DNA of 28,662 bases from Bacteroidota bacterium (lineage in GTDB: Bacteria; Bacteroidota; Bacteroidia; Flavobacteriales; Flavobacteriaceae). This document shows, piece after piece, positions 2,029 through 28,662 of the stretch (its first letter is position 1; each line of letters opens with the position of its first letter). The notes beneath the pieces were generated by a model that did not search any database, had not been told where the DNA came from, and worked only from the letters and a program-made list of their open reading frames with translations. The position numbers and the translations under genes were made by a program. The stretch lies in the NCBI GenBank assembly GCA_021793535.1, contig JAJYSO010000001.1:1-28662 (forward strand). Direction: 5' to 3'.

Positions 2029-2844
2029 ATGAATACCCCAAAAGTTATTGTTGTTTTGTTCCTCTTGCTAATTGTCAGCGCTTGTCAAACCAATCCTTTT
2101 ACCGGCAAAAAAGGCCTGGCCTTAGTCTCCAATAGTGAACTTTTCCCTCAATCGTTTCAACTTTACCAGGAGACTCTAAAAGAAAGCAAAGTCATTCGTG
2201 GAACGGCCGAGGCAAAAATGGTCGACCAGGTGGGGCGTCAAATTGCTGAAGCAGCCGAAAAGTTTCTGGCTTCAACCGGGCAACAAGGATACCTTAAAGA
2301 CTATCGATGGGAATATGCGCTTATTGAAAGTGACCAAGTCAACGCTTGGTGTATGCCCGGAGGAAAAATTGCCGTGTACAGCGGCATTCTTCCCCTCACC
2401 CAAAACCGTGCTGGGTTAGCCGTGGTCATGGGACATGAAGTCTCTCACGCCCTCCTCAACCACAGTCAACAACAAGCAAGCCAAAGCCAAATCACCAACG
2501 TCATTGGAATGGGAGGAAGCACGGCGCTAAGTGGAACGCAATTCGGAAGTGTCTTCAATCAAATATACGGGATCGGTACACAATTAGGGGTAACGTTGCC
2601 TTATAGTCGAAAATTCGAGACCGAAGCAGATGAACTCGGTCTACAACTGATGGCCATTGCGGGGTATGACCCCGAAGTAGCCATTGCCTTTTGGGAACGG
2701 ATGAACGCTGCTGGAGGAAAGGCCCCTGCCGAGTTTTTAAGCACGCACCCTTCCGGTCAATCCCGCATCAACAACCTCAAAGGAAAAGTAAACGAAGCCA
2801 AAGCTACTGCCCGAAAATTTGGGGTAACTCAATTCCAAAAATAG
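2029..2844 (+). CDS. M48 family zinc metalloprotease, lipoprotein (YfgC/LoiP-like)
   Basis: Lipobox IVSAC, VNAWCMPGGKI, HEVSH zinc motif, YSRKFETEADELG and LSTHP. The start is moved from 1981 to 2029 (or 2020) because a TATATTTG promoter box sits at 1993-2000. Confidence 0.92.
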   Translation: MNTPKVIVVLFLLLIVSACQTNPFTGKKGLALVSNSELFPQSFQLYQETLKESKVIRGTAEAKMVDQVGRQIAEAAEKFLASTGQQGYLKDYRWEYALIESDQVNAWCMPGGKIAVYSGILPLTQNRAGLAVVMGHEVSHALLNHSQQQASQSQITNVIGMGGSTALSGTQFGSVFNQIYGIGTQLGVTLPYSRKFETEADELGLQLMAIAGYDPEVAIAFWERMNAAGGKAPAEFLSTHPSGQSRINNLKGKVNEAKATARKFGVTQFQK

Positions 2845-5586: not shown

Positions 5587-7512
5587 ATGCCAGCAGCAAG
5601 TTTACAGCCCGATTTAATCAACAGTTTTGAACGGGTGCCCGTTCAGATATTCAGCAACTCCAAATCGGGTGCTCAATATATTGCCAGCCGCATTGCAAAG
5701 CTTATTAAAACTAGACAGGAAGAACAAAAAACTTGTGTATTGGGACTGGCCACCGGATCTACTCCTGAAGTACTCTATACCGAACTGATTCGGTTGCACC
5801 GAGAAGAGGGGTTGAGTTTTAAAAATGTCATCACCTTCAACTTGGATGAATATTACCCCATGGCTAAAGAAAACCCGAACAGTTATTATTTTTACATGCA
5901 CGATAGGCTTTTCAACCATATTGATATCCTCCCTGAAAACGTTCATATCCCGAAAGGATATGTTCCCAAAAACCAACTCGGCGAAGCTTGTGAGGCATAC
6001 GAAAAGGACATCAAAAAAGCCGGAGGTATTGATATCCAGTTATTGGGAATCGGACAAAACGGGCACATAGGATTTAACGAACCGGGATCCAGCCTCCACT
6101 CCACCACCCGTTTAATTCCTTTGGACAATCACACGCGTTTGGCCAATGCCTCTCATTTCGGGAAGCTTTCGGAGGTGCCTCGGTTGGCTGTAACCACCGG
6201 CATTCAAACCATTATGGGCGCCAAGGAAATCATCTTATTAGCTTGGGGAGACAACAAGGCTATGGCCATCCAAAAAGCCGTTGAGGACCACCCAACGGAA
6301 ATGGTCCCAGCTTCACTGCTTCAAAACCATCCCAACTGTACCTTTGTCATCGATGAAAATGCGGCCCAAAACCTGATCCGATATCAATCTCCATGGCTAA
6401 CAGGAGCAATCAAATGGACGGAAAAACTGATCCGAAAAGCCGTGTGTTCCCTAGCTCTGGAACTAGACAAGCCCATTTTGATGTTGACCGATCAAGACTA
6501 CAACGATTGTGGACTAAGTGATCTTATAGAAGAACACGGCTCAGCTTATGATATCAACCTAAAGGTTTTTAACGGCATGAAACGCACCATTACCGGGTGG
6601 CCGGGTGGAAAACCCAACGTCAACATCATTGGCCATCCCGAACGGGCGACACCAGCGAAAAAGCGTGTCCTTATCTTTTCCCCTCACCCCGACGACGATA
6701 TCATCTCTATGGGAGGGACTTTCATTCGTTTACACGAACAAGGACACGATGTGCATGTCGCTTATCAAACCTCGGGTAACATCGCCGTAGGCGATGAATT
6801 AGTAGAACGATTTTTGGACTTCTCTACAGGCTTCGACAAGCTGTTTGCCATCCAAGATCGACCCAGCCAAGTCATTTTTGAAAAGGCTAAAACTTTTTTC
6901 AAAACCAAACAAAAACAAGACCTGGATCTTCCAGAGATTCGTAAAATCAAAGGGCTCATTCGGCGTTGTGAAGCCAAGGCCACCTGTAGGTATGTTGGAT
7001 TGGAAGAAGATCATGCCCACTTCTTGGATCTCCCCTTTTATGAAACGGGAACCATTAAAAAAGATACACCTAAAGAAGAAGATATAAAAATCGTCACGGA
7101 TCTTATTCAAGAAATCCAACCACATCAAATTTATGCTGCAGGGGATTTGGCCGATCCACACGGTACCCATAAAGTCTGTCTGGATATCCTTATCGAAGCC
7201 CTGAATCGATTAAAAGAAAAAGCCTTCATGAAGGATTGTTGGGTATGGCTTTACAGAGGAGCTTGGCAGGAGTTCGAGCCCTATGAGATCGAAATGGCTA
7301 TCCCTATGAGTCCTGATCAAGTCATCCAGAAACGAAATGGAATTTTGATTCATCAAAGTCAAAAAGACGCTGTTCCGTTCCAAGGGGAAGACAAACGAGA
7401 GTTCTGGCAAAGGGTCGAGGATCGCACAGCAGAAACTGCCCGTTTATACGACAAGCTCGGGTTACCACAATACGCTGCATTAGAAGGATTTGTAAGGTAC
7501 CCATACCAATAG
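5587..7512 (+). CDS. nagB: Glucosamine-6-phosphate deaminase fused to a C-terminal PIG-L/LmbE-like deacetylase domain (Bacteroidota long NagB)
   Basis: N-terminal GLATGSTP, TFNLDEYYP and LLGIGQNGHIGFNEPGS are NagB motifs. C-terminal FSPHPDDDIISMGG and DLADPHGTH are PIG-L metal motifs. Confidence 0.93.
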   Translation: MPAASLQPDLINSFERVPVQIFSNSKSGAQYIASRIAKLIKTRQEEQKTCVLGLATGSTPEVLYTELIRLHREEGLSFKNVITFNLDEYYPMAKENPNSYYFYMHDRLFNHIDILPENVHIPKGYVPKNQLGEACEAYEKDIKKAGGIDIQLLGIGQNGHIGFNEPGSSLHSTTRLIPLDNHTRLANASHFGKLSEVPRLAVTTGIQTIMGAKEIILLAWGDNKAMAIQKAVEDHPTEMVPASLLQNHPNCTFVIDENAAQNLIRYQSPWLTGAIKWTEKLIRKAVCSLALELDKPILMLTDQDYNDCGLSDLIEEHGSAYDINLKVFNGMKRTITGWPGGKPNVNIIGHPERATPAKKRVLIFSPHPDDDIISMGGTFIRLHEQGHDVHVAYQTSGNIAVGDELVERFLDFSTGFDKLFAIQDRPSQVIFEKAKTFFKTKQKQDLDLPEIRKIKGLIRRCEAKATCRYVGLEEDHAHFLDLPFYETGTIKKDTPKEEDIKIVTDLIQEIQPHQIYAAGDLADPHGTHKVCLDILIEALNRLKEKAFMKDCWVWLYRGAWQEFEPYEIEMAIPMSPDQVIQKRNGILIHQSQKDAVPFQGEDKREFWQRVEDRTAETARLYDKLGLPQYAALEGFVRYPYQ

Positions 7513-27100: not shown

Positions 27101-27181
27101 CGCACTACTTTTAGAAATGAACGAGCAAGATAAAAAGAAATCACTTAAAGTGGGAACTTCTTTTTGATCACCTACTCCTCC

Positions 27182-27213
27182 TTGCTAAATGACGACAAAC
27201 TTTCTTATATTCG
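27182..27213 (+). promoter_or_regulatory. Probable fabH promoter (-33 TTG, N21, -7 TATATTCG)
   Basis: TTG at 27182-27184 and TATATTCG at 27206-27213 (a one-mismatch variant of TAnnTTTG). This supports a start at 27236 rather than 27164. Confidence 0.5.
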
Positions 27214-27235
27214 TATGATGACTAATACAAAATTT

Positions 27236-28252
27236 ATGCTTTACACCTCTAAGATCGCCGGTTTGGGAAGCTATGTTCCCGAAAATATTGTAACCAATGA
27301 CGAGCTCTCCAAACGTATGGACACAAACGACAAATGGATTACCGAACGAACAGGCATCAAAGAACGCCGGCATATCAAAGACAGAGCCGAAGGAGAGACA
27401 CCTGTAGCTTCCATGGGGGTAAAAGCCGCTAAAATAGCCCTTGAAAGAGCGCAGATCGATAAAAATGATATTGATTTGATTGTCTTTGCTACTTTAAGCC
27501 CCGACTATTACTTTCCCGGCTCAGGTGTTATTGTACAAGATTTATTGGACATCAAAACGGTTCCGGCACTGGACATTCGCAACCAGTGCAGCGGTTTCGT
27601 TTACGGCCTTTCTGTCGCTGACCAATTTATTAAAACGGGCATGTATAAAAATGTGCTGCTCATTGGCAGTGAGAACCACAGTGGAGGGTTGGATATGACC
27701 ACAAGAGGCCGAGGGGTGTCGGTACTGTTTGGTGACGGCGCAGGAGCAGCGGTGTTGACCCGAAGTAAAGATCCCCAAAAAGGGATTCTGTCCACCCATC
27801 TCCATTCACAAGGAAAGCACGCGCTGGAGCTTTCTTTGAAAGGTCCAAGCACCAACCATTGGGTACCCGAAATCATTGCGGAAAATCCTCAAGAAGACAT
27901 CCCTTATTACCCGTATATGAACGGCCAGTTTGTCTTTAAAAATGCCATTCGCCGCTTTTCCGAAGTCATAGAAGAAGGCCTATCCGCCAACAAACTCTCC
28001 AAAGAAGATATTGATTTGTTCATCCCTCATCAGGCCAACCTGCGCATTGCCGAATACATCCAGAAAAAATTTGCACTCTCCGACGATCAAGTGTACAACA
28101 ACATTCAAAAATACGGGAACACCACCGCCGCATCGATCCCCATTGCATTAACTGAAGCTTGGGAAAGGGACAAAGTACACGAAGGAGATCATGTCGTCCT
28201 CGCTGCATTCGGAAGCGGGTTCACTTGGGCCAGTGCCGTTATACGCTGGTAA
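27236..28252 (+). CDS. fabH: 3-oxoacyl-ACP synthase III family protein
   Basis: Cys-His-Asn triad (NQCSGF, FIPHQAN, YGNTTAAS), plus WITERTGIKERR, LFGDGAGA and FGSGFTW. Confidence 0.93.
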   Translation: MLYTSKIAGLGSYVPENIVTNDELSKRMDTNDKWITERTGIKERRHIKDRAEGETPVASMGVKAAKIALERAQIDKNDIDLIVFATLSPDYYFPGSGVIVQDLLDIKTVPALDIRNQCSGFVYGLSVADQFIKTGMYKNVLLIGSENHSGGLDMTTRGRGVSVLFGDGAGAAVLTRSKDPQKGILSTHLHSQGKHALELSLKGPSTNHWVPEIIAENPQEDIPYYPYMNGQFVFKNAIRRFSEVIEEGLSANKLSKEDIDLFIPHQANLRIAEYIQKKFALSDDQVYNNIQKYGNTTAASIPIALTEAWERDKVHEGDHVVLAAFGSGFTWASAVIRW

Positions 28253-28273
28253 ATACCCCACAGGTTGTTTTAT

Positions 28274-28499
28274 ACAACGGAGCGTAAAACCCCATTCATC
28301 GTTTTAGCGTGGATGGGATGTAAGCGACCATTGGCCATGGCTTAAACTGTATTGACGAATTGTTTCTGGTGATGCTTCACCTATTGAGCAAACGAAAAAT
28401 CCTAACTGATTTAAACAAACAAGAAGATACGTCATAACGCACACGCTGTGAAACCCGAAGCCCAACCCATCGCCTCTGGTCTGGGGGGAGGTAGTTCAC
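28274..28499 (+). mobile_element. Miniature non-autonomous IS200/IS605-family derivative (PATE-like): left-end and right-end hairpins without tnpA or tnpB
   Basis: TTTAT (28269-28273) precedes AAAA plus hairpin CCCATTCATCGT-TTTA-GCGTGGATGGG (28291-28317). At the other end, GAAG (28457-28460) precedes a degenerate hairpin CCCAACCCATCGCC-TCT-GGTCTGGGGGG and then GTAGTTCAC (ends 28499). No ORF longer than 21 codons on the + strand. The left boundary is approximate. Confidence 0.72.
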
Positions 28500-28506
28500 A
28501 GTAACC

Positions 28507-28641
28507 TTACAACCATCTTTTACGTTTGAAATACCACAACATCCCCAAAAAGAGAACAAACATCAGTCCCAACACGACAAAATAAGCATATCGAAAATGA
28601 AGCTCCGGCATATAGTCGAAATTCATCCCGTATATCCCTGC
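28507..28641 (-). CDS. corA: 3' end of a CorA magnesium/cobalt transporter (partial; upstream sequence is not CorA-like)
   Basis: The minus strand reads AGIYGMNFDYMPELHFRYAYFVVLGLMFVLFLGMLWYFKRKRWL*, containing the CorA GMN signature, MPEL loop and last TM helix. It is missing from the ORF track. Whether the gene is intact cannot be determined. Confidence 0.9.
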   Translation of the reverse strand, partial: AGIYGMNFDYMPELHFRYAYFVVLGLMFVLFLGMLWYFKRKRWL

Positions 28642-28662
28642 ATATACTCTCACCTGCATCTC

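Follow-up and report, generated by a model that had tools for sequence, protein, structure and literature searches.

The 226-bp stretch between fabH and corA near the end of the window (the whole 28,662-nt piece of DNA analyzed here) is very probably a decayed, gene-less derivative of the IS200/IS605 family, with an IS605-type layout and of the PATE class, and most likely it is now an immobile fossil. What we observe directly is its homology to full-length insertion sequences, its anatomy, a family of copies in the same genome, and its absence from related genomes. The following sequence hallmarks of the family are found in it: palindromes, a fixed target without duplication, guide tetranucleotides, descent from an element with a Y1 HUH TnpA, and remnants of a tnpB gene that runs into the right end. 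PATEs are defined as elements that lack inverted terminal repeats, carry near-terminal palindromes, cause no target duplication, and are too short to encode a transposase (PMC3119063). All of this holds for the element in the window, whose two termini, ACAACGG... and ...TAGTTCAC, do not form an inverted repeat. The first-pass annotation had read the stretch as an IS200/IS605-type non-autonomous derivative, and the copies, full-length parents, and gene scraps described below support that reading.

The element occupies most of a 254-nt spacer between two convergent genes, starting 21 nt past the fabH stop codon and ending 7 nt from the corA stop codon (Table 1); the window itself ends at 28662, inside corA, about 160 nt past the element. 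We placed the element boundaries at the points where the likeness between copies stops. TTAT, AAAA, GAAG, both hairpins, the terminus, and the right-end reading frame were all found where the first-pass annotation had located them. Folded as single-stranded DNA, the left hairpin reaches -10.2 kcal/mol on the plus strand (z of -2.6 against shuffled sequences) and a z of only -0.5 on the minus strand, as would be expected of a hairpin that contains G-T pairs and forms on one strand only. The right hairpin of the window copy folds weakly (z of -1.3) because its 3' arm is mutated: it reads GGGGGGAGG, whereas relatives have GGGTGGG before TAGTTCAC. At the left hairpin, the 5' foot carries one extra C after the guide in comparison with most other copies and relatives. 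Thus, the earlier description of two intact ends holds insofar as both hairpins are kept, but the left foot and the right 3' arm have both changed. The longest frame in the 226 bp is a 53-amino-acid ORF without a family match. A 63-amino-acid minus-strand frame had no Pfam match either, and a PDB sequence search with it returned only a kinetochore protein at chance level.

Table 1. Features of the fabH-corA spacer and of the element within it (window coordinates)
Feature	Position	Strand	Remarks
fabH	27164-28252	+	Identity confirmed by Pfam
Target and left cleavage motif TTTAT (C_L = TTAT, 28270-28273)	28269-28273	+	Flank, outside the element
Whole non-autonomous IS605-type element, 226 bp	28274-28499	+	Both ends align to full-length elements of 1.7-1.8 kb
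Left guide tetranucleotide AAAA (G_L)	28286-28289	+	5' of the hairpin foot, 12 nt after TTAT
Left subterminal imperfect hairpin	28290-28317	+	Followed by AT, then by conserved GTAAGCGAC
tnpA remnant, last 23 codons	28334-28402	-	Reads FFVCSIGEASPETIRQY...; tblastn with a relative's TnpA
tnpB 5'-region fragment, 28 nt	28403-28430	+	LTDLNKQEDT in the tnpB frame; match to L157
tnpB 3' tail, ~18 codons	28439-28492	+	Reads ...KPEAQPIASGLGG, runs into the right hairpin
Right guide tetranucleotide GAAG (G_R)	28457-28460	+	Directly 5' of the right hairpin
Right subterminal hairpin, 3' arm damaged compared with relatives	28461-28491	+	Weak fold
Right terminus TAGTTCAC	28492-28499	+	Right cleavage site TCAC = 28496-28499
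corA stop codon	28507-28509	-	Identity of corA confirmed by Pfam

The arrangement of these motifs can be read against IS608 of H. pylori, in which TnpA binds the hairpins and each cleavage site is read through base pairing with a guide tetranucleotide that lies 5' of the hairpin foot (He et al. 2011, PMC3201880). Two pairs published for the right end of IS608, T-4:A-34 and C-3:G-35, are stabilized by triplets with the AG that lies 3' of the hairpin, the corresponding dinucleotide at the left end being AT (PMC3201880). The pairing rule quoted in the first-pass annotation agrees with these published base pairs. Applied to the window, it predicts TTnT from the guide AAAA and TCnC from GAAG; TTAT and TCAC are present, an agreement at the level of sequence for both ends. 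GAAG and TCAC also occur in full-length relatives that were anchored on sequences other than the right end.

The likeness to IS608 extends to several points. Both elements have subterminal imperfect hairpins; in both, the guide is complementary at its positions 1, 2, and 4 to positions 2, 1, and 4 of the cleavage site, AT follows the left hairpin and AG the right one (as part of TAG in the window), and insertion takes place 3' of a fixed tetranucleotide without duplication. They differ in their guides (AAAA and GAAG in the window versus AAAG and GAAT in IS608) and sites (TTAT and TCAC versus TTAC and TCAA). The spacers are also shorter than those of IS608: the left hairpin foot lies 16 nt from its cleavage site, and 8 nt separate the right foot from the tip. 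Lastly, tnpA is divergent from tnpB in the parents of the window element, in contrast to the co-directional arrangement in IS608. Divergent tnpA and tnpB genes are the arrangement of IS605.

These parents were found in other genomes. A degenerate 24-nt left-end pattern, which demands TTTAT before the left end, retrieved more than 114 stretches from a species-representative genome collection, in hosts including Sphingobacterium, Algoriphagus, Saprospiraceae, Chitinophagales, Clostridia, and Methanosarcina; most relatives of the element are in Bacteroidota. Where contigs reach that far, the tip GGTAGTTCAC lies 1.7 to 1.8 kb downstream of the left end. Between the two ends, the relatives share one layout, in the order left end, tnpA on the minus strand, tnpB on the plus strand, and right end. 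The minus-strand ORF, of about 140 amino acids, abuts the left end with its 3' end and matches Y1_Tnp (PF01797 in Pfam) with E values of 4e-30 and 4e-32. The plus-strand ORF, of about 400 amino acids, ends inside the right hairpin, its stop codon being the TAG of TAGTTCAC, and carries the Pfam domains OrfB_IS605 (PF01385), Cas12f1-like TNB (PF07282), and HTH_OrfB_IS605 (PF12323). Full-length relatives include L157 (from a metagenome), L106 (Sedimentibacter sp. MAG), L046 (Algoriphagus resistens), L038 and L105 (Sphingobacterium), L086 (Chitinophagales MAG), and L058 and L081 (Methanosarcinales), and additional full-length copies were found in metagenome contigs. Two of the loci, L150 and L151, hold one and the same element at two sites that differ in both flanks and show no target duplication.

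The full-length parent called for by the first-pass annotation therefore exists, as tnpA/tnpB elements with the same ends in other genomes. These relatives and the window copy have in common the left-end motif after TTTAT, the right end composed of GAAG, a hairpin, and TAGTTCAC, the FFVCSIGEASPETIRQY tail of tnpA, and the tail of tnpB. They differ in that the relatives are 1.7 to 1.8 kb long and encode TnpA (Y1_Tnp) and TnpB, and they are only 71 to 84% identical to the window copy in nucleotide sequence.

The Methanosarcina loci (L037, L040, L043, L047, L058, L081, and others) show TTTAT, a leader, GTAAAA, a hairpin, and a conserved box resembling GATATAAGCGTC; tnpA and tnpB are present, and the tip is TAGTTCAC. 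Since the left-end motif and the tip occur in Methanosarcina, Bacteroidota, and Clostridia alike, the family spans bacteria and archaea. In two elements with the same left and right ends, an ORF resembling a homing endonuclease stands in the place of tnpB. One of them (L106:55-1768) has an intact-looking tnpA, a 314-amino-acid LAGLIDADG_3 ORF (E value of 6e-15), and only the last ~45 to 70 residues of tnpB; the LAGLIDADG ORF occurs once in its MAG, on a 1823-nt contig. The other (L108:3278-4419, on a Woesearchaeota MAG contig) has a 239-amino-acid ORF of GIY-YIG and NUMOD-like type and only the last 85 residues of tnpB. The homing endonuclease may have replaced the RNA-guided nuclease of these elements, or it may merely have invaded it.

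Alignment to the full-length relatives made it possible to assign a parental origin to the entire element in the window except positions 28431-28438. Positions 1 to 131 of the element match positions 1 to 132 of L106 with 81% identity. The tnpA remnant, which surfaced only once a full-length relative served as the query, corresponds to residues 142 to 164 of the L106 TnpA, with 87% identity over 23 amino acids (tblastn against the whole genome, E value of 1.2e-7). The next 28 nt are identical at 27 of 28 positions to L157:1289-1316 (E value of 2e-8), which lies inside the tnpB gene of L157 at about residues 73 to 82; L072 matches at that same tnpB position in 13 of 13. From about 28439 onwards, the element aligns to the last 60 to 95 nt of L106, L046, L038, and L105. 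The plus-strand frame of the right end reads KPEAQPIASGLGG in the window copy, and tnpB of L106 ends in KSEAQPIACGAGG; the resemblance of EAQPIASGLGG to a TnpB tail, to which the first-pass annotation had pointed, is therefore real.

Because a tnpA tail, a scrap of the tnpB 5' region, and the tnpB tail have all been kept, the element has lost about 1.5 kb by at least two internal deletions. The cargo is indeed gone, as had been proposed, and the element is gene-less, but the removal was not clean: three coding remnants were left behind. An alignment to L106 had suggested a single deletion of 1.49 kb, which we discarded once L157 placed 28403-28430 in the 5' region of tnpB. The first junction falls within 28395-28403, a stretch of 8 to 9 nt that is alike in both parental segments; a repeat-mediated deletion is therefore possible, judging from relatives that are 80 to 89% identical. 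The second junction maps to 28430/28431 or close by, which is exactly where the contigs of other copies part from the window. A near-identical parent did not turn up; at the left end, even the best relatives are 80 to 84% identical, so that the deletion junctions are read from diverged sequences.

We next consider the genome that carries the window, a highly fragmented assembly of 2.09 Mb in 346 contigs with a completeness of 85.7%. A BLAST search with the spacer showed that its left part is repeated at a dozen other places, and a left-end profile found 17 places at an E value below 1e-3 in the 2.09 Mb. A scan for the tip gave about 20 right ends, each with a hairpin and (G)GTAGTTCAC and with unrelated right flanks. 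The copies start right after TTTAT, with a few exceptions (TTTAC, TTTTC, and TTTAG), keep GTAAAA ahead of the left hairpin, and end in TTCAC. TTTAT stands directly 5' of the left end even though the left flanks otherwise differ; the flanks are unrelated on both sides, and the right flanks do not repeat TTTAT, meaning that no target duplication took place. This pattern of ends and flanks is far beyond chance, and it is what the first-pass annotation had anticipated of further copies. Many copies adjoin fragments of tnpB (its Zn-ribbon domain) or of a Y1 transposase, and all of them are decayed. There is no second copy of the 226-bp form in the genome; the nearest copies are 87 to 94% identical and cover parts of it only. 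No intact tnpA is present in the assembly, the best candidates being a 67-amino-acid N-terminal fragment (contig C139) and a pseudogene without the HUH region (C338). Intact tnpB was likewise missing from the assembly, which has C-terminal fragments only and no RuvC-domain or OrfB_IS605 match over the cut-off.

The same genome also harbors smaller forms. At least eight single-hairpin, "terminal-only" mini-elements of about 47 to 55 nt consist of TTTAT, a leader with GTAAAA, one hairpin, and TAGTTCAC (C220:691-745(+), C57:3782-3727(-), C342:383-437(+), C334:~6048-6102(+), C153:~2415-2363(-), C89:~885-832(-), C294:~2552-2601(+), and C295:~11452-11402(-)). They are commoner in this genome than two-hairpin relics, and they also occur at L041, L070, L075, L087, and L109, in hosts that include Chitinophaga, Methanosarcina, and Lachnospiraceae contigs. 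The fusion point varies from copy to copy, leaving a left-type, a right-type, or a hybrid hairpin, a variation that points to separate deletion events between the two related hairpins. The mini-elements have AAAA instead of GAAG before the hairpin, so that by the IS608 rule their right cleavage site would go unread.

A second set of right ends has a similar hairpin and the (G)GTAGTTCAC tip and carries TAGG, AGGT, AAAT, or other tetranucleotides instead of GAAG (C335:7345(+), C335:8413(+), C102:4367(-), C252:3766(-), C34:1394(-), and C338:~6100-6165(+)); these ends do not fit the IS608 guide rule. On C338, the tnpA pseudogene runs directly into a tnpB tail of this GAAG-less type that has the same orientation, which suggests a co-directional, IS608-like relative. 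Several contigs (such as C342, C257, C92, C139, and C17) start or stop no more than a few hundred bases away from a family relic, and repeats of the family are probably one reason for the fragmentation of the assembly.

Outside this genome, the element is absent from 40 related genomes, six of them from the same genus. Only one relative, also of the same genus, keeps fabH beside corA; its spacer is 90 nt long and without similarity to the element. With coding sequences only about 73% identical, the exact empty site cannot be read from that relative. An exact empty allele was found neither in contigs of other metagenomes nor by a 26-mer search of JGI metagenome contigs, and the insertion event is consequently deduced from the absence of the element in diverged relatives only. 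Hence, the comparison of the fabH-corA interval that the first-pass annotation had proposed yielded 40 relatives free of the element and one short spacer, but not the exact empty allele.

The stretch or part of it is carried by 20 public runs from 11 studies, on compost, sludge, soil, farm, fermentation, and aquatic samples. We compared the contigs of four runs from four other studies with 27800-28662, bearing in mind that contigs drop rare variants. In three of the four runs (X5, X7, and X10), contigs pass from fabH into the element, and the right-end junction with corA is also covered. No joint that skips the element appears in the contigs of the four runs, in which rare variants would be hidden, and the insertion is fixed wherever it was observed. 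One contig in one run joins 28292 to 28457; we rejected it as an excision product, for it looks like a single-hairpin copy of another locus. Contigs in other metagenomes break inside the element. In three other metagenomes, contigs go on from the tnpA tail into tnpA-like sequence that is absent from the assembly, and a longer copy may thus exist in the organism or in its community.

Could the element still move? In a live PATE, TnpA from elsewhere in the cell would excise the element and reinsert it 3' of another TTTAT. Both hairpins, the guides, and the cleavage sites are in place and fit the IS608 pairing rule, family copies are found at many different sites, an intact tnpA could be missing from so incomplete and fragmented an assembly, and the tnpA-like extensions seen in other metagenomes point in the same direction. 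We nevertheless regard this scenario as unlikely. No intact tnpA was found, the best pieces being the C139 fragment and the HUH-less pseudogene on C338, the 226-bp form has no other copy, with the nearest sequences diverged and partial, and an extra C separates the guide from the left foot while the right 3' arm is mutated. Moreover, among contigs from three independent studies that span the element junctions, none skips the element. From the small lesions at both ends, and from the lack of any intact transposase gene in the 85.7%-complete assembly, the element is predicted to be immobile now. The earlier proposal that a TnpA encoded elsewhere could mobilize it is therefore unsupported, given that the assembly has no intact tnpA and that the insertion is fixed wherever seen.

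We find it very improbable that the right end works as an orphan omegaRNA (reRNA) module, transcribed rightward over ~28431-28519, with a guide antisense to the corA 3' end and a TnpB supplied in trans that would either cut the empty site again or act on corA. The omegaRNA of this family is encoded at the 3' end of tnpB and in the right end, with the flank just beyond as the guide (PMC8612924), and PATE-like elements that retain omegaRNAs are on record (PMC10055086). However, the reRNA of ISDra2 is about 150 nt long, including a 16-nt guide (PMC8612924), and only ~61 to 69 nt of the tnpB 3' region remain beside the right end in the window, that is, at most 69 nt of a scaffold of ~130 nt. Against a consensus fold of the last 150 nt of seven relatives, the window copy keeps 13 of 34 pairs, compared with 22 to 34 in the relatives, although this is a rough test, with the fold derived from those same relatives. 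When scanned for promoters and terminators, the sequence showed no promoter-like site on the plus strand and no terminator-like site on the relevant strands. The genome, at 85.7% completeness, offers no intact TnpB, only the C-terminal tnpB fragments without a RuvC-domain match over the cut-off. A related version, to which we give hardly any credence, has the relic far from inert: a short RNA running from the right end into the 3' end of corA would guide the TnpB of an unassembled copy to re-cut the donor joint between TTTAT and AGTAACC. If so, the gene-less shell would stay fixed, which could explain why none of four independent metagenomes has an empty allele.

A spacer element owned by the host, be it a regulatory RNA, a terminator, or a REP-like repeat, is almost certainly not the answer: hairpins between convergent genes are where terminators are expected, yet there is no terminator-like site and no Rfam match over 27800-28662 even at an E value of 10, the sequence is absent from the 40 relatives and from the one that retains fabH-corA adjacency, and the recognizable tnpA and tnpB pieces inside it, with their homology to full-length insertion sequences, contradict such an origin.

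The decayed IS605-type relic thus remains our preferred explanation, and its history may be reconstructed as follows. An ancestral element of about 1.7 to 1.8 kb would have inserted 3' of TTTAT in a short spacer between the convergent fabH and corA genes. To judge from IS608 and ISDra2, it would have followed the "peel and paste" pathway that Y1 HUH transposases use on single-stranded DNA. TnpA would have bound each subterminal hairpin, with AAAA pairing with TTAT in the left flank and GAAG with TCAC at the right tip. Later, at least two internal deletions, possibly at short repeats, would have taken ~1.5 kb. Both ends survive, together with the final 23 codons of tnpA, the 28-nt tnpB 5' scrap, and the last ~18 codons of tnpB.

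Relics of this kind have been known since 2011, and the identification, while correct, is an ordinary one that implies no new mechanism. Its value for annotation is that the 254-nt fabH-corA spacer is now explained, and that some 20 decayed IS605-type relics in one genome are defined by the target TTTAT, the tip TAGTTCAC, and their guide tetranucleotides. Reasoning with the IS608 rule from sequence alone proved right and provides a calibration point.

Besides IS608 and the full-length relatives, two sets of known elements are close to the relic. In Geobacillus stearothermophilus, PATE-like elements of the IS605 family share both ends with tnpB-bearing transposons and have no protein genes (Meers et al. 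2023, PMC10055086). The window copy is equally minimal, with ends common to tnpB-bearing transposons and no protein-coding genes. The Geobacillus elements, however, are reported often to encode omegaRNAs usable in trans, for which not enough of the tnpB 3' region is left in the window copy.

The other set comes from the haloarchaeon Haloquadratum walsbyi, which has remnants of divergent IS200-type/IS1341-type elements with only short C-terminal pieces of both genes, as well as 52-bp "terminal-only" versions that arose by deletion between the two palindromes (Dyall-Smith et al. 2011, PMC3119063). The ends of the window element differ from those of the Haloquadratum PATEs (a TTTAT target and a TAGTTCAC tip), it has in addition retained 28 nt from the tnpB 5' region, and no strain-specific insertion that would indicate mobility was observed for it. 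Yet both Haloquadratum forms have their counterparts in the genome of the window, the window copy being of the core-deleted type and the eight or more mini-elements of the terminal-only type. Haloquadratum-style erosion of IS605-type elements down to their ends is therefore now seen in a bacterium of compost, sludge, and soil metagenomes as well.
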